DNA of 64,000 bases, from positions 1 to 64,000 of the forward strand of contig CBDCUI010000008.1 of NCBI GenBank assembly GCA_965222615.1, read 5' to 3'. Below, one piece after another: positions 1-15,884 of the stretch (the first letter of the stretch is position 1; every line of letters begins with the position of its first letter). The stretch comes from Gammaproteobacteria bacterium (GTDB lineage: Bacteria; Pseudomonadota; Gammaproteobacteria; UBA4575). The position numbers and the translations under genes are program-made. The notes under the pieces are model-generated. The model worked only from the letters and a program-made list of their open reading frames with translations. It was not told the origin of the DNA and made no database searches.

Positions 1-2
1 CA

Positions 3-455
3 TCAGGACCAGATTCTGAGTTTAGAGAAATGGAATTTTCGGTAGACGATCAAGAGATCATGAATAAGCTTAAGCAAGCGTTAAATGATAAATCAATCGA
101 TTTCCAAACATACACAAAACATGGGGAAGAATATATTGGGTACAGCAAAGAAGACAAAAATTTTTTTGAAGAAATTCGGTATCTAGTTATGACGGGTAGA
201 CCTAAAGGTTATGAGCAAATATGTAGTGACGATGAAGACCGTACAGAACTAATGTCTCAGCGTCTTAAGGATGTAGGTATACATACACTATCTAGTGATA
301 GAGGCGAAGAATATGGGGGTTACAGTAGATACTGTTTGGCTTGGCCTGAAGAACATAATGGAAAAGTTGCAGAATTAGATAGCCGTTATAAATACATTCT
401 AGAACGTCAAAAACAACTGCGTGAAAATGAAGGTGTCAAAAGTAATCTTGAGTAA
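3..455 (+). CDS. hypothetical protein, probably 5'-truncated by the window edge
   Basis: ORF 30..455. The frame is open back to position 3 (SGPDSEFRE-M). No family recognised. Confidence 0.6.
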   Translation, partial: SGPDSEFREMEFSVDDQEIMNKLKQALNDKSIDFQTYTKHGEEYIGYSKEDKNFFEEIRYLVMTGRPKGYEQICSDDEDRTELMSQRLKDVGIHTLSSDRGEEYGGYSRYCLAWPEEHNGKVAELDSRYKYILERQKQLRENEGVKSNLE

Positions 456-539
456 TCGCTAATGACCCAATGTATGGACACCTCCAAGCTAAGCAATTAG
501 TTTGTGTGGTGTTAGAAACACAAAAGAAGGAGTCCATAC

Positions 540-1583
540 ATGAAACATCTAAACATAGTTGGCGTTGATTTAGCAAAAAACGTAATCCAAGTTTGCGTGA
601 TGCGCGCGCAGCGACAAGAAGTAATCAATCGTTCCTATAGTCGTACTAAATTTGCAGTATTTCTCGTTAAACAACAGCGCAGTGTCATCGCCTTTGAAGC
701 ATGTGCCAGTAGTCATTATTGGGCACGAAAAGCCAAAGCATTGGGGCATACCATCAAAATCATTCCGGCAAAAGCGATCACACCGTATCGTCAAGGCCAT
801 AAAACCGATATCAATGATGCCCGCGCGATCGCTGAAGCGGCGAGCCGTCCCCACCTACTTGAAGCCCCATTAAAGAGTGTTGAACAACAAGGCTTGCAAG
901 CCGTACAACGTTCAAGAGAGCTTTTGGTACAAGAGCGAACCGGTCTATCCAACCACATCCGTGGCATATTGATGGAATTTGGCATCGTCATTCCTAAAGG
1001 CTTTGCCGCCTTGCATCAACAGATACCCGAGGTACTAGAAGATGGGGAGAACGAGCTACCCGATCTATATCGCCCGACGTTACAGATATTGTACGAACGC
1101 TTAGTGCAACTCAAAACAACCATCACGATACTTGATCAACAAATTGCCGCCCTCATCAAACAACATCCAGGTTGCGAAACGCTCATGAAGATAGAAGGTG
1201 TGGGCCCAATCAGTGCGATATTACTGTATGCCAGCCTTGGTAGTGGCGATGCGTTTAGCCAAGGTAGACAATATGCGGCGTACTTAGGGTTAACGCCCAA
1301 GCAATACAGCAGTGGCGGGAAAACGAATCTTATTGGGATAAGTAAAAAGGTTGCGAATAAACGTTTGCGCTCCGTACTCATTCAAGGAGCACGTGCTTAT
1401 GTGCACAAGCTCAAAGAACCGAAAAGCCAAAAAGATCGCTGGCTGCTGGCACTGATTGAACGTGCCGGCTATGGCAAGGCGGCGGTAGCGTTAGCCAACA
1501 AAAATGTGCGCACCGCATGGGCCATGCTGACCCGGGGGACAACGTACAATAAACAACATACAACCACGATGCACATTGCATAA
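540..1583 (+). CDS. IS110-family DEDD transposase/recombinase
   Basis: GVDLAK, AFEAC, KTDINDA (DEDD RuvC-like), GVGPISA HhH, LGLTPKQYSSGGK catalytic-Ser motif, AAVALANK. Confidence 0.97.
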   Translation: MKHLNIVGVDLAKNVIQVCVMRAQRQEVINRSYSRTKFAVFLVKQQRSVIAFEACASSHYWARKAKALGHTIKIIPAKAITPYRQGHKTDINDARAIAEAASRPHLLEAPLKSVEQQGLQAVQRSRELLVQERTGLSNHIRGILMEFGIVIPKGFAALHQQIPEVLEDGENELPDLYRPTLQILYERLVQLKTTITILDQQIAALIKQHPGCETLMKIEGVGPISAILLYASLGSGDAFSQGRQYAAYLGLTPKQYSSGGKTNLIGISKKVANKRLRSVLIQGARAYVHKLKEPKSQKDRWLLALIERAGYGKAAVALANKNVRTAWAMLTRGTTYNKQHTTTMHIA

Positions 1584-1825
1584 AAACAAAACCAAGACAC
1601 TACGTTACATAAAAGTGTAGAAGAGGTTAGGCAAGTAGACCTAGGTAAAGAATAAAGAGATTCGCTTCGATGAAACCTGCTCCGCTTTGAGGATAAATAG
1701 AATCCATCGACCCAATGAGGCATCGAAGTGCGCATACATACAGGGCTAGAAGATCGCAACTTCACGAAAAAGCCGAATATACATCTGCGTCTTTTTCTTT
1801 ATCAATTTCTGTTTGCTAAACTGGC
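1584..1825 (+). ncRNA. predicted bridge/seek RNA of IS copy 1 (ends approximate)
   Basis: Stem CTTCGATG(1665-72)/CATCGAAG(1721-28) encloses TCCGCTTTG and GACCCAA, which match the target flanks. A second loop contains CATACAT and ATATACA, which match the IS ends. Confidence 0.8.
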
Positions 1826-1902
1826 GGTGTCCATATACAAAGCGGACATTTAAGTTATGAGTGCGCTATTATCAAATCTGGTTAACATTGAATAATTCTT
1901 GA

Positions 1903-2211
1903 ATGATGAGTAGATGGAGTATTTTTGTAAAAACCATTAAAGATCAGTTGGGGTACTATAGGGCTTTGGCATTAGACCCACGCACACCAGCGATTTCCAA
2001 ATGGCTTATCGGTATCGCGATTGCTTACTTGGTTTCTCCTATCGATATTATTCCTGATTTTGTTCCGATATTTGGATACTTAGATGATCTTATTATCGTG
2101 CCAAGTTTAATTGGCATTGCCGTTTTTTTAATTCCAAAGGATGTGAAGCTGGAAACGAGAGCACGCCAATCTATATATCCAGATGCGCTGAAATCAAATT
2201 TGAACATATGA
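1903..2211 (+). CDS. YkvA/DUF1232 family membrane protein
   Basis: DPRTP...AYLVSPIDIIPDFVPIFGYLDD signature. Confidence 0.9.
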   Translation: MMSRWSIFVKTIKDQLGYYRALALDPRTPAISKWLIGIAIAYLVSPIDIIPDFVPIFGYLDDLIIVPSLIGIAVFLIPKDVKLETRARQSIYPDALKSNLNI

Positions 2212-2423
2212 CAAAAGGTCCGCTTCAATTATTTTCGACACTTATATGCCCAGAGTGTGGGAAAAAATACAAAGAAAAAATGCCTACAAACGCCTGCCAG
2301 TACTATTATGAATGTGTTTCTTGTGGTGCGTTATTAAAGCCCAAAACAGGAGATTGTTGTGTGTATTGTTCGTATGGCGATACGCCATGCCCGCCTATTC
2401 AACAACAGAAAAGTTGCTGTTAG
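2208..2423 (+). CDS. GDCCVxC domain small Cys-rich protein
   Basis: CPECG...MPTNACQYYYEC..C...LKPKTGDCCVYCSYG..PCPP. All Cys codons, no TGA. Confidence 0.9.
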   Translation: MTKGPLQLFSTLICPECGKKYKEKMPTNACQYYYECVSCGALLKPKTGDCCVYCSYGDTPCPPIQQQKSCC

Positions 2424-2521
2424 AGTAATGATTGCTTTTGGCTGCTACCCAATGTATGGACACCTCCAAGCTAAGCAATTAGTTTGTGTGGTGTTAGAAA
2501 CACAAAAGAAGGAGTCCATAC

Positions 2522-3565
2522 ATGAAACATCTAAACATAGTTGGCGTTGATTTAGCAAAAAACGTAATCCAAGTTTGCGTGATGCGCGCGCAGCGACAAG
2601 AAGTAATCAATCGTTCCTATAGTCGTACTAAATTTGCAGTATTTCTCGTTAAACAACAGCGCAGTGTCATCGCCTTTGAAGCATGTGCCAGTAGTCATTA
2701 TTGGGCACGAAAAGCCAAAGCATTGGGGCATACCATCAAAATCATTCCGGCAAAAGCGATCACACCGTATCGTCAAGGCCATAAAACCGATATCAATGAT
2801 GCCCGCGCGATCGCTGAAGCGGCGAGCCGTCCCCACCTACTTGAAGCCCCATTAAAGAGTGTTGAACAACAAGGCTTGCAAGCCGTACAACGTTCAAGAG
2901 AGCTTTTGGTACAAGAGCGAACCGGTCTATCCAACCACATCCGTGGCATATTGATGGAATTTGGCATCGTCATTCCTAAAGGCTTTGCCGCCTTGCATCA
3001 ACAGATACCCGAGGTACTAGAAGATGGGGAGAACGAGCTACCCGATCTATATCGCCCGACGTTACAGATATTGTACGAACGCTTAGTGCAACTCAAAACA
3101 ACCATCACGATACTTGATCAACAAATTGCCGCCCTCATCAAACAACATCCAGGTTGCGAAACGCTCATGAAGATAGAAGGTGTGGGCCCAATCAGTGCGA
3201 TATTACTGTATGCCAGCCTTGGTAGTGGCGATGCGTTTAGCCAAGGTAGACAATATGCGGCGTACTTAGGGTTAACGCCCAAGCAATACAGCAGTGGCGG
3301 GAAAACGAATCTTATTGGGATAAGTAAAAAGGTTGCGAATAAACGTTTGCGCTCCGTACTCATTCAAGGAGCACGTGCTTATGTGCACAAGCTCAAAGAA
3401 CCGAAAAGCCAAAAAGATCGCTGGCTGCTGGCACTGATTGAACGTGCCGGCTATGGCAAGGCGGCGGTAGCGTTAGCCAACAAAAATGTGCGCACCGCAT
3501 GGGCCATGCTGACCCGGGGGACAACGTACAATAAACAACATACAACCACGATGCACATTGCATAA
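2522..3565 (+). CDS. IS110-family DEDD transposase/recombinase
   Basis: Protein identical to 540..1583. Confidence 0.97.
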   Translation: MKHLNIVGVDLAKNVIQVCVMRAQRQEVINRSYSRTKFAVFLVKQQRSVIAFEACASSHYWARKAKALGHTIKIIPAKAITPYRQGHKTDINDARAIAEAASRPHLLEAPLKSVEQQGLQAVQRSRELLVQERTGLSNHIRGILMEFGIVIPKGFAALHQQIPEVLEDGENELPDLYRPTLQILYERLVQLKTTITILDQQIAALIKQHPGCETLMKIEGVGPISAILLYASLGSGDAFSQGRQYAAYLGLTPKQYSSGGKTNLIGISKKVANKRLRSVLIQGARAYVHKLKEPKSQKDRWLLALIERAGYGKAAVALANKNVRTAWAMLTRGTTYNKQHTTTMHIA

Positions 3566-3807
3566 AAACAAAACCAAGACACTACGTTACATAAAAGTGT
3601 AGAAGAGGTTAGGCAAGTAGACCTAGGTAAAGAATAAAGAGATTCGCTTCGATGAAACCTGCTCCGCTTTGAGGATAAATAGAATCCATCGACCCAATGA
3701 GGCATCGAAGTGCGCATACATACAGGGCTAGAAGATCGCAACTTCACGAAAAAGCCGAATATACATCTGCGTCTTTTTCTTTATCAATTTCTGTTTGCTA
3801 AACTGGC
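3566..3807 (+). ncRNA. predicted bridge/seek RNA of IS copy 2 (ends approximate)
   Basis: Same sequence as 1584-1825. Confidence 0.8.
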
Positions 3808-3919
3808 GGTGTCCATATACAAAGTGGACATTCAAATAGAACTAGGATTATTGAGAATTTATAGGGAGACTACTTTATATAAGTTATTAATTATTTCCTA
3901 AATTAAAAAAGAGGATTGT

Positions 3920-4336
3920 ATGAGTAAAATTCTAGAGTCTGCGAAGCAATTCTTTGATGCCTGTGAGACTGGAAAAGGATGGGCTGGCTGTAAGGAATAC
4001 TGTCTACCTAATGCAACATTCTCTTCGCAAACAGGAGTACTTGCTGAAATAAATACACTTGAAGATTACTGTGAATGGGTGAAGGACTTGTTTATACCTG
4101 TACCAGATGGCCGTTATGAATTGCTTTTTTTTGCAGCTGATGAAGCTCGTAAAACTGTTGCTGGTTATGGTGTATTTCACGGGACACAAACAGGTCCAGG
4201 TGGTCCGGTGGCACCCACTGGAAAATCTTTTACTGCTGACTATGTTTATGCAATGGTATTCGAAGGCAATCGTATTCAACACATGACGAAAATATGGAAT
4301 GATACGATTACTATGCAACAACTCGGGTGGAATTAA
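3920..4336 (+). CDS. SnoaL-like/ester cyclase (NTF2-fold) protein
   Basis: FHGTQTGPGGPVAPTGKSFTADYVY...KIWN. RBS GAGG upstream. Confidence 0.8.
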   Translation: MSKILESAKQFFDACETGKGWAGCKEYCLPNATFSSQTGVLAEINTLEDYCEWVKDLFIPVPDGRYELLFFAADEARKTVAGYGVFHGTQTGPGGPVAPTGKSFTADYVYAMVFEGNRIQHMTKIWNDTITMQQLGWN

Positions 4337-4384
4337 CTCCATTTGTATTTGTTATAGAGCGGTTCTAATTTAGTAGATGCTTTT

Positions 4385-4664
4385 ATGTCTGCTATTGACT
4401 GTGGTCTCAATAGGTCGATGCAACACTTTGAAATAGAGTGAAAAAAGGTTGCAAAAGCTAAGAGAAATGCAATTACATCAACATCTTAAGAGTAGATCAA
4501 TAAAAGATGGCTCGAAGCAAGTAATAATGCAGTATTTAATGTAACCGGTTCATCCAAAAACAACTCAACACTAAATGGTCATCCGTTTGAGTCAACCTCT
4601 TTATTACTAAAAGTTTAGCAAGGTGTTGCATTGACCGATTGAATCGGCAACCTTAAGCGGACAT
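4385..4664. repeat. palindromic site 3 (empty form ATGTCTGCT-ATTGACCTTA-AGCGGACAT), split by the MITE
   Basis: Left arm 4385-4399 and right arm 4652-4664 are homologous to the sites split by the IS copies at 451-470/1841-1850 and 2427-2452/3823-3832. Confidence 0.75.
4400..4649. mobile_element. MITE / internally deleted IS30-like element
   Basis: 27-bp TIRs TGTGGTCTCAATAGGTCGATGCAACAC / GTGTTGCATTGACCGATTGAATCGGCA (21/27 match), flanked by a 2-bp AC duplication (4398-99, 4650-51). No transposase. Family assignment is from recalled end motif. Confidence 0.75.
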
Positions 4665-4702
4665 TTTTAATTCATAAAAGTATAAAATTATAGAAATTAG
4701 TA

Positions 4703-5251
4703 ATGCGAGTTGATCCTGCGAGTCATTTAGTAGTTGGAGTGAACTACACACCTTCGCCTAATTGTGATGAGCGACCTGAGAATTGTTCTCCATCGCTAAT
4801 CGTTATTCATAATATCAGTTTGCCGCCAAATGAGTTTGGTGGGCCGTATATCGAGCAGTTGTTTACTAACCAGTTGGATCCTAATGTGCATCCCTATTTT
4901 GAAGAAATTCAACATCAAAAAATTTCTGCACATGTATTGATTCGACGTGATGGTAGCGTTACACAATTTGTGCCTTTTAATCGTCGGGCTTGGCATGCGG
5001 GGGAGTCTAGTTACGAGGGTCGATCTTGTTGTAATGATTTTTCCATTGGTATCGAACTAGAAGGCACTGATGAAATTCCTTATGAAGATGTTCAATACTT
5101 AGTTCTAACTACTCTGATTGATGCATTGCGTATCGCTTACCCAATGCTTGGCAAACAAAATATTGTTGGACATTCGGATATTGCTCCGCAACGAAAGACT
5201 GATCCGGGCCGTGTATTTGATTGGAAATTTTTGCGCGAACAATTGGCCTAA
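4703..5251 (+). CDS. ampD: 1,6-anhydro-N-acetylmuramyl-L-alanine amidase
   Basis: SPNCDERP, IHNISLPP, RAWHAG, CNDFSIGIELEG, GHSDIAPQRKTDPG. Confidence 0.95.
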   Translation: MRVDPASHLVVGVNYTPSPNCDERPENCSPSLIVIHNISLPPNEFGGPYIEQLFTNQLDPNVHPYFEEIQHQKISAHVLIRRDGSVTQFVPFNRRAWHAGESSYEGRSCCNDFSIGIELEGTDEIPYEDVQYLVLTTLIDALRIAYPMLGKQNIVGHSDIAPQRKTDPGRVFDWKFLREQLA

Positions 5252-14558: not shown

Positions 14559-15884
14559 TTGCTGTATTTATTGTTAATGATGGATTATAGCCTGGCTACC
14601 GCCGAATCTTTATCCGCTGCATTGCTAGATGCGCGTTCTAGGACATTAGCTTTGGTTGAAGGGTTAAATGAGCAGCAATTACAAGGGCCTGTTTTGCCAA
14701 CGATTAACCCATTACGTTGGGAGATTGCCCATACTGCGTATTTTCATGAGGTTTGGGTATTACGTCATTTAGGCAAGTATCCACCCATACGTACAGATGC
14801 AGATGCGTTGTTTGATTCAATTTCTATTCAACATGACGAGCGTTGGGAATTACCTTTGCCGAATCTTGTTGACACATTTGTGTATATGAATGATGTGTTG
14901 CAAAACGAACTGGATCAACTTAAGCAAATCGATCTAAATGACAATGCAAAATACTTTTATTTGCTGGCGTTATTTCATGAAGATATGCACGGTGAGGCTT
15001 TTACGTACGCGCGGCAAACTTTGGCTTATCCAAGACCGAGTTTTATACAAGAAAAGCAAAATAAAGAGTTATATTCTGCTGTTAAGCAAGAAGATATTGA
15101 AATACCGGGCGGTAAATTTTTGCTCGGGGCGACACGCGAAAGTGGCTTTATTTTTGACAATGAAAAATGGGCGCATGAAATTACACTTGCGCCATTTAAA
15201 ATTGCTAAATACGCAGTTAGTAATGAAGGCTACTTAGAATTTGTAGAAGCAAATGGCTATCAAAATGAAAAGTATTGGTGTGAGGCGGGTTGGTTATGGC
15301 GTAACAAAACTAAACTAAATCATCCGGTCTACTGGAAACAAGACAGCGATAAAAAATGGTATCAACGACAGTTTAATCAATGGTTGCCGCTTGGTATGAG
15401 TGACGCTGCAATTCATATCAGTTGGTATGAAGCTCAGGCATTTTGTAATTGGGCAAATCGACGATTACCAACTGAAGCTGAGTGGGAGTTTGCAGCGGCA
15501 TGTGATCCCAATAATCAAGAAAAAAATCTAATGTTTAAGCGAGATTTCCCTTGGGGAGATGTCGATAACCGGGGTAATGCAAATCTAGATACCAATCATT
15601 CAGGTCCGGTAGAAGTTGGAGCATATCCGGCAGGCGATAGTGCATGGGGTTGCTGTCAAATGATTGGCAATGTGTGGGAATGGACGGCTTCAACTTTTTT
15701 ACCTTATCCAGGATTTTCACCGGACTGGTATACAGAATATTCGCGTCCATTATTCAAGCAGACAAAGGTATTACGTGGTGGTGCTTGGGTCACCCGTAGT
15801 CGCATGCTACGCAATACCTGGCGTAATTATTATGGACCGGATCGAAATGATGTGTTTGCCGGGTTTAGAACTTGTGCTAGGTAA
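14559..15884 (+). CDS. senA: selenoneine synthase SenA-like (EgtB-family DinB_2 + FGE-sulfatase)
   Basis: NPLRWEIAH, HEDMHGEA iron motif, RLPTEAEWE, GNVWEW, RNYYGPDRNDVFAGFR. Divergent from senB. The true start may be an ATG near 14578-14581. Confidence 0.85.
   Translation: MLYLLLMMDYSLATAESLSAALLDARSRTLALVEGLNEQQLQGPVLPTINPLRWEIAHTAYFHEVWVLRHLGKYPPIRTDADALFDSISIQHDERWELPLPNLVDTFVYMNDVLQNELDQLKQIDLNDNAKYFYLLALFHEDMHGEAFTYARQTLAYPRPSFIQEKQNKELYSAVKQEDIEIPGGKFLLGATRESGFIFDNEKWAHEITLAPFKIAKYAVSNEGYLEFVEANGYQNEKYWCEAGWLWRNKTKLNHPVYWKQDSDKKWYQRQFNQWLPLGMSDAAIHISWYEAQAFCNWANRRLPTEAEWEFAAACDPNNQEKNLMFKRDFPWGDVDNRGNANLDTNHSGPVEVGAYPAGDSAWGCCQMIGNVWEWTASTFLPYPGFSPDWYTEYSRPLFKQTKVLRGGAWVTRSRMLRNTWRNYYGPDRNDVFAGFRTCAR

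Follow-up and report, generated by a model that had tools for sequence, protein, structure and literature searches.

The described systems closest to the locus reported here are integrons and the clusters of attC sites lacking integron-integrases (CALIN). The locus lies at the left end of a 64,000-nucleotide stretch of a gammaproteobacterial genome (hereafter the window, positions 1-64000 of contig C8 in an assembly of nine contigs) and consists of small accessory genes separated by a short palindrome. As in integrons and CALIN, these palindrome arrays hold co-oriented, unrelated and mostly single-gene modules whose borders fall inside a repeated, imperfectly palindromic site; they occupy variable chromosomal spots, often have no enzyme nearby, and are parasitised by insertion sequences (IS) of the IS1111 family. 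They differ in that the site is a simple and highly conserved sequence of 28 bp, that AAC/GTT boxes, IntI and attI are missing, and that many mini-modules lack an open reading frame (ORF).

The neisserial intergenic mosaic elements (NIME, dRS3 flanking RS) offer a second parallel, since here too short repeat modules are flanked by a short inverted repeat whose core varies, and the arrays lie near variable genes (PMC1797815). According to that paper, a recombinase was hypothesised for NIME, an IS110-type enzyme integrates DNA at the repeat, and such arrays were stated to be unseen outside Neisseria. NIME-like units (B-spacer-A and B-17 nt-C-17 nt-A, the letters denoting palindrome classes defined below) occur in the arrays described here, which, unlike NIME, carry whole genes, have a site of 28 bp instead of the 20 bp given for NIME, and share this site among several bacterial classes. 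Repetitive extragenic palindromes (REP) and bacterial interspersed mosaic elements (BIME) are likewise extragenic palindromes in mosaic clusters, hit at fixed positions by unrelated IS families (PMC1525189); ISPa11 and ISPpu9 are named as IS found at REPs in PMC11187229 and 10.1101/2025.01.17.633520. The palindromes of this study differ from REP/BIME in having no REP-associated tyrosine transposase (RAYT) as a partner, in being few in this genome, in being tied to accessory modules and in being conserved beyond the species. In the pdif modules of Acinetobacter plasmids, gene modules are likewise delimited by 28-bp sites, polarity alternates from one site to the next, and the manner of movement is unsettled. 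In contrast to pdif, the arms of the palindromes are unlike the genome's own dif-like site, the arrays are chromosomal, and a search of 72,556 plasmid records gave no match, nor did phage or viral-contig collections.

The 28-bp palindrome and the array next to ampD

Uninterrupted copies elsewhere in the genome show that the intact unit is a palindrome of 28 bp, in which two arms of 9 bp (ATGWCYGCT / AGCGGACAT) enclose a 10-bp core. Two core classes prevail, A (WWCGACCCAA, ..YGACCCAA) and B (WTTGGCCGAA, ..TGGCCGAA), and the usual order is B, a spacer of 45-55 bp containing GGTTGGAW, A, a further 10-100 bp and a start codon. All three sites in the window are interrupted, two by identical elements of 1370 bp and the third by a 254-bp miniature inverted-repeat transposable element (MITE). 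The features of positions 1-5251 are:

3..455, + strand: cassette ORF of 150 amino acids (aa), 5' end off the contig, no Pfam family; its stop TAA (453-455) lies within the left arm of site 1
451..470, + strand: left arm and A-type loop of site 1 (ending ...GACCCAA), AGTAATCGCTAATGACCCAA
471..1840, + strand: IS1111-type element copy 1, 1370 bp; transposase at 540-1583 with DEDD_Tnp_IS110 and Transposase_20 domains
1841..1850, + strand: right arm of site 1, AGCGGACAT(T), read as AGCGGACATT
1903..2423, + strand: cassette with two overlapping ORFs, a DUF1232 protein (1903-2211) and a 71-aa Cys-rich protein (2208-2423)
2424..2452, + strand: left part of site 2, beginning right after the stop TAG (2421-2423)
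2453..3822, + strand: IS1111-type element copy 2, 100% identical to copy 1
3823..3832, + strand: right arm of site 2, AGTGGACAT(T), read as AGTGGACATT
3832..4396, + strand: SnoaL-like cassette with 5' leader, ORF at 3920-4336 and the left arm of site 3 at 4385-4393
4385..4396, + strand: left arm and loop start of site 3, ATGTCTGCTATT
4397..4650, + strand: 254-bp MITE with IS30-type ends in the loop of site 3
4651..4665, + strand: remaining loop and right arm of site 3, CCTTAAGCGGACATT; right arm AGCGGACAT at 4656-4664
4703..5251, + strand: ampD (Amidase_2), which forms the conserved border on the right of the variable region; ate and gshA come next

The original prediction for this DNA had recognised three related pairs of half-palindromes between positions 451 and 4665, and these are present as read directly. 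Since the other copies of the inserted elements all lie within like palindromes, the three half-site pairs are real. Site 2 is a degenerate fusion in which the left arm and the start of a B-type loop are followed by the end of an A-type loop. The description of the array genes as co-oriented and next to ampD (the 150-aa ORF, DUF1232, the 71-aa Cys-rich ORF and the SnoaL-like ORF, with ampD from 4703) also stands, as does the statement that the sites are not attC: the AAC/GTT outer boxes are absent from both the palindromes and the B-spacer-A composites. The perfect palindrome in which the site had been cast (ATGTCCGCT-N-AGCGGACAT) had to be given up, with 0 occurrences in the genome scan; genuine sites are imperfect, and degenerate patterns and an nhmmer profile were therefore used instead.

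With up to two mismatches allowed, the genome contains ten intact sites, which are unbroken and match the joined flanks of the insertions. Eight of the ten have a neighbour within 10 kb, whereas 2000 random placements gave 0.54 on average and never more than 6. The motif is thus clustered, and a REP-like scatter through core intergenic regions was not seen, the empty orthologous loci (few were examined) being free of palindromes. The reversed-pattern control gave 0 matches in all 41 related genomes surveyed, and likewise in a wider sample of the phylum. Of the 106 sites in 186 kb of array loci, 104 lie between genes. The left arm varies with its position: among 56 A sites in the related genome G006, ATGACC stands after stop codons and ATGTC mostly after spacers. 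A further repeat, X, adjoins some A sites. Neither the palindromes, nor repeat X, nor the non-coding region of the IS belongs to an Rfam family (only two tRNAs were matched), and in a promoter and terminator scan T runs did not follow the palindromes.

Computed folding suggests that single-stranded B-spacer-A forms a single long, imperfect hairpin by pairing of B with A, so that the modelled composite resembles attC in size and shape. A Lysobacter unit gave -21.8 kcal/mol (z -6.5) and a unit of this genome -16.1 kcal/mol (z -3.6), z values of -3.6 to -6.5 being reached in three of the four top or bottom strands of two composites, and one unit of the congener gave a z of only -1.5. Junctions formed by a lone A palindrome of 28 bp are frequent, however, and the hairpin can therefore not account for everything. 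A third class, C, with the same arms and a TTTGGGGGTA core, was observed in an alphaproteobacterial metagenome-assembled genome (MAG; G044, loci L260-L262), where it stands between B and A with 17-nt spacers and is also hit by an IS110-type element.

With regard to the surroundings of the array, groES-groEL precede ampD in the 11 related loci that show both genes. In seven of these loci the gap between groEL and ampD measures 49-280 bp, contains a GC-rich terminator and lacks palindromes; in the other four it comprises 0.9-3.1 kb of ORFs, mostly unshared between loci, and three of the four contain palindromes. Across the 12 ampD loci examined, palindromes are confined to variable gaps, and gene content beside ampD differs unit by unit between relatives, as expected from the cassette-like organisation originally proposed. 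In this genome groEL ends at C7:813089, and the 9.8 kb of contig C7 beyond it end inside the sixth IS copy at the contig end. This tail holds palindromes, three small cassette ORFs without Pfam family, two copies of the 1370-bp element, two other IS110-type elements in B-type sites and a full IS30-family element (HTH_38 and rve domains) in a loop. As judged by synteny, C7 most likely adjoins C8 (the junction itself is unassembled), in which case the array spans at least 14.5 kb.

Cassettes as modules and the distribution of the site

The pattern A-ORF-B-spacer-A-ORF recurs in this genome, its congener, G006, Lysobacter and the alphaproteobacterial MAG; the congener has four B-45 bp-A units, and in Lysobacter the spacer measures 6-10 bp. 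An ORF module starts with an A-type core and right arm and ends with the stop codon and a left arm, and short modules without an ORF begin with a B-type core. Comparison of homologous pairs shows that the left-arm variants travel with the upstream module, and the core and right arm with the downstream module.

The palindrome-bounded genes behave as modules, in line with the original prediction, as five cassettes were found in more than one context, their homology stopping within the palindromes (SnoaL, CBS, a 105-aa ORF, a 71-aa ORF and an RRM block). The SnoaL unit of the window (3820-4345) shows 91% nucleotide and 93% aa identity to a palindrome-bounded copy in another genus, where A and B flank it, the neighbours are different and AmpD is only 76% identical; in G006 its protein is 69% identical and the unit again lies between A and B. 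The CBS, 105-aa and 71-aa cassettes have counterparts in G006 at 81-88% identity, the 71-aa unit (2193-2432) at 81% nucleotide identity next to a different neighbour, and the RRM block is found in the congener at 71% identity. Moreover, a 318-aa cassette has a counterpart of 88% identity in another genus, and the 177-aa cassette of a second locus lies 1.8 Mb away in the congener (G001), which at the counterpart of that locus has the conserved genes without cassettes or palindromes. Contigs from soil metagenomes matched L002:8519-10116 at 90-99% identity with zero depth over the flanks; these are unitigs and indicate presence only. Apparent palindrome-to-palindrome joints in contigs of four public runs on L002:6500-12500 were rejected as excision products; all have short sides (31 letters or fewer) and lie on very deep bins, and we take them for artefacts of unitig repeats.

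Two other loci of this genome deserve description in their own right. Locus L002 (C9:78000-87100) is a tRNA-linked island with a P4-type integrase (L002:13976-15037) beside the tRNA (15069-15141), and it holds three palindrome-bounded cassettes encoding an RRM protein, DUF7684 and a CBS pair. Locus L003 (C9:253600-266700) is a hotspot around the dif-like site at C9:261065, with the 1370-bp IS, two IS110-type copies, an IS30-type element, the MITE and a 216-aa tyrosine-recombinase ORF. Two palindromes of L003 have common flanks of 58 and 70 bp in inverted orientation, an arrangement which suggests inversion or exchange between sites.

The distribution of the site was surveyed in the 41 related genomes, again with up to two mismatches. 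It is present in 13 of them at 1 to 172 copies, the highest number being that of G006, and of the other genomes of this genome's family 11 of 24 carry it; the same search gave 6 matches in this genome, and across all surveyed carriers the copy number reaches 190. The exact 22-mer of the A site occurs at at least 127 loci in diverse taxa, including, among the matches listed, Woeseiaceae, Nitrospina, Caulobacteraceae, other Alphaproteobacteria, Lysobacter dokdonensis, Oleiagrimonas, Billgrantia and Hahella. Two matches fall in a 'Mycobacterium' MAG of 35-39% GC and probably reflect a binning error. Lysobacter has 38 pattern matches (19 per strand), mostly in one 23-kb array, and the alphaproteobacterial MAG has 190 in the same B-(C)-A-ORF layout. 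In an even sample of the phylum, an A site was present in only 10 of 401 genomes: this one and nine members of a single other family. Such a patchy distribution points to horizontal spread. Literature searches over the main texts of freely accessible papers brought up no account of this site: its 15-mers were found in no paper, and a search for integron-like palindromic cassettes returned nothing relevant.

Insertion elements that target the palindrome

The 1370-bp element is present in five full copies and one copy at a contig end, all 100% identical. Its insertion point is constant: all six copies follow ...CCCAA and the five complete ones precede AG(C/T)GGACA. The element fits the IS1111 group in having a DEDD transposase with a PF02371 C-terminal domain and a single insertion point and orientation. 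Like the seekRNA-guided IS1111 elements (PMC11187229), it has a non-coding region downstream of the transposase gene (257 bp after the stop), short subterminal inverted repeats (TATGGACACC / GGTGTCCATA) and ordered guide-like matches. Segments matching both halves of the target were found at 1681-1689 (the complement of CAAAGCGGA) and 1708-1715 (CGACCCAA). According to PMC11187229, the top-strand complement lies ahead of the part matching the target on the bottom strand in IS1111 seekRNAs, and the two segments follow this order, consistent with a putative seekRNA. The difference from the described elements is that the target is a newly seen family of palindromes and that the seekRNA is here predicted from sequence.

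The MITE has four further full copies (99.6-100% identity), each within a palindrome loop, and one of its ends agrees in 25 of 30 bases with the terminal repeat of the full IS30-family element of this genome (L001:12447-13613, - strand; HTH_38 and rve domains). The palindrome had been proposed as a shared target of two unrelated element types; this was borne out for the IS1111 type, and for the IS30 type in part, as the third insert in the window is a MITE and not a full IS30 element. Two further IS110-type lineages were observed in the right arm of B-type palindromes, one with two copies (C7:813563-814952, C9:960816-962205) and one with four (C7:819300-820700, C7:788800-790200, C9:255305-256756, C9:258698-260133). 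Three IS110-type lineages and one IS30-type lineage are thus tied to the sites. The alphaproteobacterial MAG has an IS30-type transposase of 63% identity at the centre of an A loop, and a C-type palindrome there harbours another IS110-type element.

That all three window sites are occupied, and that IS110-type and IS30-type lineages are tied to the sites, might raise the thought that the palindromes are made by, or part of, the IS (footprints, ends or solo copies) and that the array is IS debris. We consider this extremely unlikely. IS110-family and IS30-like genes were not found in genomes with 49 to 172 palindromes, which shows that the site is a target and not an IS product; the guides carried by the IS match the site, which argues that it is not part of the element either; and the intact sites are continuous, as already described.

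Readings of the array and the search for an enzyme

We tentatively read the locus as a modular array of cassettes, orphan and integron-like (or NIME/BIME-like), in which the junction palindromes double as IS targets, and give this reading somewhat less than an even chance. The first 4700 positions of the window would then be the right end of an array between groEL (at the end of C7) and ampD. Modules would be gained, lost and exchanged by recombination at the palindromes, following an integron-like logic with a simple, non-attC site, and the enzyme would act in trans and be absent from this genome, leaving an orphan array comparable to CALIN. The abundant and conserved sites in turn serve as landing pads for the predicted RNA-guided IS1111/IS110-type elements, the IS30-type element and the MITE. 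The data establish the anatomy of the arrays, their modularity, their distribution and the targeting by IS, while the site-specific nature of the recombination and the identity of the enzyme are inferred; the original interpretation as a whole is accordingly supported in part. A more far-reaching version, which we regard as possible but doubtful, is that the palindromes are the sites of an undescribed gene-capture system parallel to integrons, with heterospecific A/B/C cores, ORF modules and promoter-like mini-modules, a patchy occurrence in Proteobacteria and Nitrospinota, and a trans-acting Xer-like or other recombinase that has mostly been lost.

A recombinase had been suspected to the left of the window, but C7 back to groES-groEL encodes only IS transposases and cassette ORFs. 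One candidate enzyme, no more than a lead, is a divergent Xer-like family of tyrosine recombinases, present in five of the 13 motif genomes and in none of the 28 others; the gene of G006 is at L109:12460-13596 (- strand). Its nearest solved relative is an archaeal XerA (E 1e-7), and its NCBIfam matches are far below the cut-offs. Palindromes lie within 1.5 kb of the Xer-like gene in eight of 12 loci (3/4 genomic, 5/8 metagenome), and in four of the 12 a palindrome stands just 3' of the gene, 8-9 bp beyond the stop in two of the genomic loci and, by estimate, no more than ~35 bp away in two of the metagenome loci. A contig scan with this candidate as a single protein matched only itself. XerCD was considered and rejected, as the dif-like site of this genome is unlike the palindrome arms.

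A number of observations weigh against recombination at the palindromes by a dedicated enzyme. Y1 transposase, IntI, IS110, serine recombinase and IS30-like transposase were all examined, and none follows the motif across genomes, so that the linked recombinase that had been expected did not emerge from any tested family. The Xer-like recombinase is absent from this genome, from the congener and from six other motif-bearing relatives, was not found in Lysobacter, the alphaproteobacterial MAG or Nitrospina, and is inconstant in position and orientation relative to the arrays. An all-versus-all comparison of ORFs from the gammaproteobacterial, Lysobacter and alphaproteobacterial arrays revealed no common enzyme except IS transposases (IS110 and IS30 transposases and one monooxygenase were in common). 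No primary attachment site was found at empty loci. At ampD, the hotspot genes of locus L015 and most of those of L016 come without palindromes, only the ampD-proximal 89-aa unit of L016 being bounded by A and B, and homologues of SnoaL in other phyla and taxa are palindrome-free in 34 of 37 loci. Palindromes form the ends of only three of the six duplications of 99-100% identity within G006, and these palindromic ends fall at differing positions within the site. The action of an unknown recombinase at the sites, as originally proposed, is therefore not borne out by these recent breakpoints, which share no one fixed position.

Several of these points are what would be expected if the palindromes were mosaic repeats of the REP/BIME or NIME kind without a dedicated recombinase, providing portable homology or hairpins for general recombination or template switching, and perhaps hairpins at transcript 5' and 3' ends with a promoter-like spacer. 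The cassette-like appearance would then be a by-product of recombination at repeats in hotspots of horizontal transfer. Variable breakpoints and the lack of a co-occurring recombinase among the families tested agree with this account, as do the extragenic and imperfect nature of the palindromes, their tens to ~190 copies per genome and the mosaic combinations of A, B, C, conserved spacers and repeat X. REPs are known as IS targets (PMC1525189), and the arrays of Neisseria were described in similar terms with a recombinase as a hypothesis (PMC1797815). The spacers also contain promoter-like hexamers (TTGGAW-17 nt-YAAAAT), but such matches are not above shuffles (14 found, 21.8 expected). REPs are species-specific, whereas near-identical 28-mers are here found across classes and phyla, and arms of 9 bp are short for RecA-driven exchange. 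Y1_Tnp matches (PF01797, the family that includes RAYT) were not found in the site-richest genomes (G006, G007, G009, G019 and G022, each with 49-172 sites), and palindromes are missing from every empty locus examined and, at ampD, occur in variable gaps only. We regard this repeat-only account as possible, though less likely than not.

It is much less probable that the palindromes are unusual attC sites of a CALIN served by the genome's own IntI. The genome does encode a bona fide IntI (C9:397324-398262; L093:17310-18293, + strand) scoring 490 bits against a cut-off of 265, the B-spacer-A composite is attC-sized with an imperfect hairpin, and IS1111-family elements are known to target attC (PMC11187229). 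However, the minus-strand array of small ORFs at this resident integron has canonical attC repeats of its own (...AAC / GTT...), whose ends are absent from the palindromes, and many junctions are single 28-bp palindromes, too short for attC. IntI exceeds the cut-off in only two of the 13 motif genomes, and in none of G006, G019, G007, Lysobacter, the alphaproteobacterial MAG with its 190 sites and Nitrospina. The integron itself is complete and chromosomal (C9:385000-398300, L093) and is not part of the palindrome arrays.

If the palindromes are true sites of exchange, as the orphan-array reading holds, integron-style gene capture would not be tied to IntI and attC, and a short, sequence-defined site would mark mobile genes in distant environmental bacteria and could be used as a search key for their accessory gene pool. 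Should the parallel gene-capture system prove real, a second kind of cassette exchange would exist beside the classical integron on one chromosome. That several predicted RNA-guided lineages of the IS1111/IS110 type, together with one of the IS30 type, converge on the same conserved target in two classes of bacteria may be a case in which target reprogramming has occurred naturally in favour of a safe landing pad. Even if read modestly, the data show that mosaic-repeat arrays similar to NIME, which PMC1797815 reports from Neisseria alone, exist outside that genus and carry whole genes.

Other repeats were also observed. A second intergenic family of ~50 bp (GAGCRCAKGGAWGYGCGAATA..CCATCAGGGAYGATGCAAC), with no Rfam match, lies at gene 3' ends (C7:373236-373283, C9:675188-675231, C9:927055-927108, C9:862396-862565, C8:163704-163737 and others); it is at times directly upstream of an A-type palindrome, and inverted copies flank a two-cassette array in the related locus L009. 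A repeat of ~130 bp (C9:835801-835934; L005:9801-9934) has copies at several places in three related genomes. Finally, the six small contigs C1-C6 (3-15 kb) have ends that are 94-98% identical to parts of C8 and C9, and look like strain variants or diverged duplications in the assembly.

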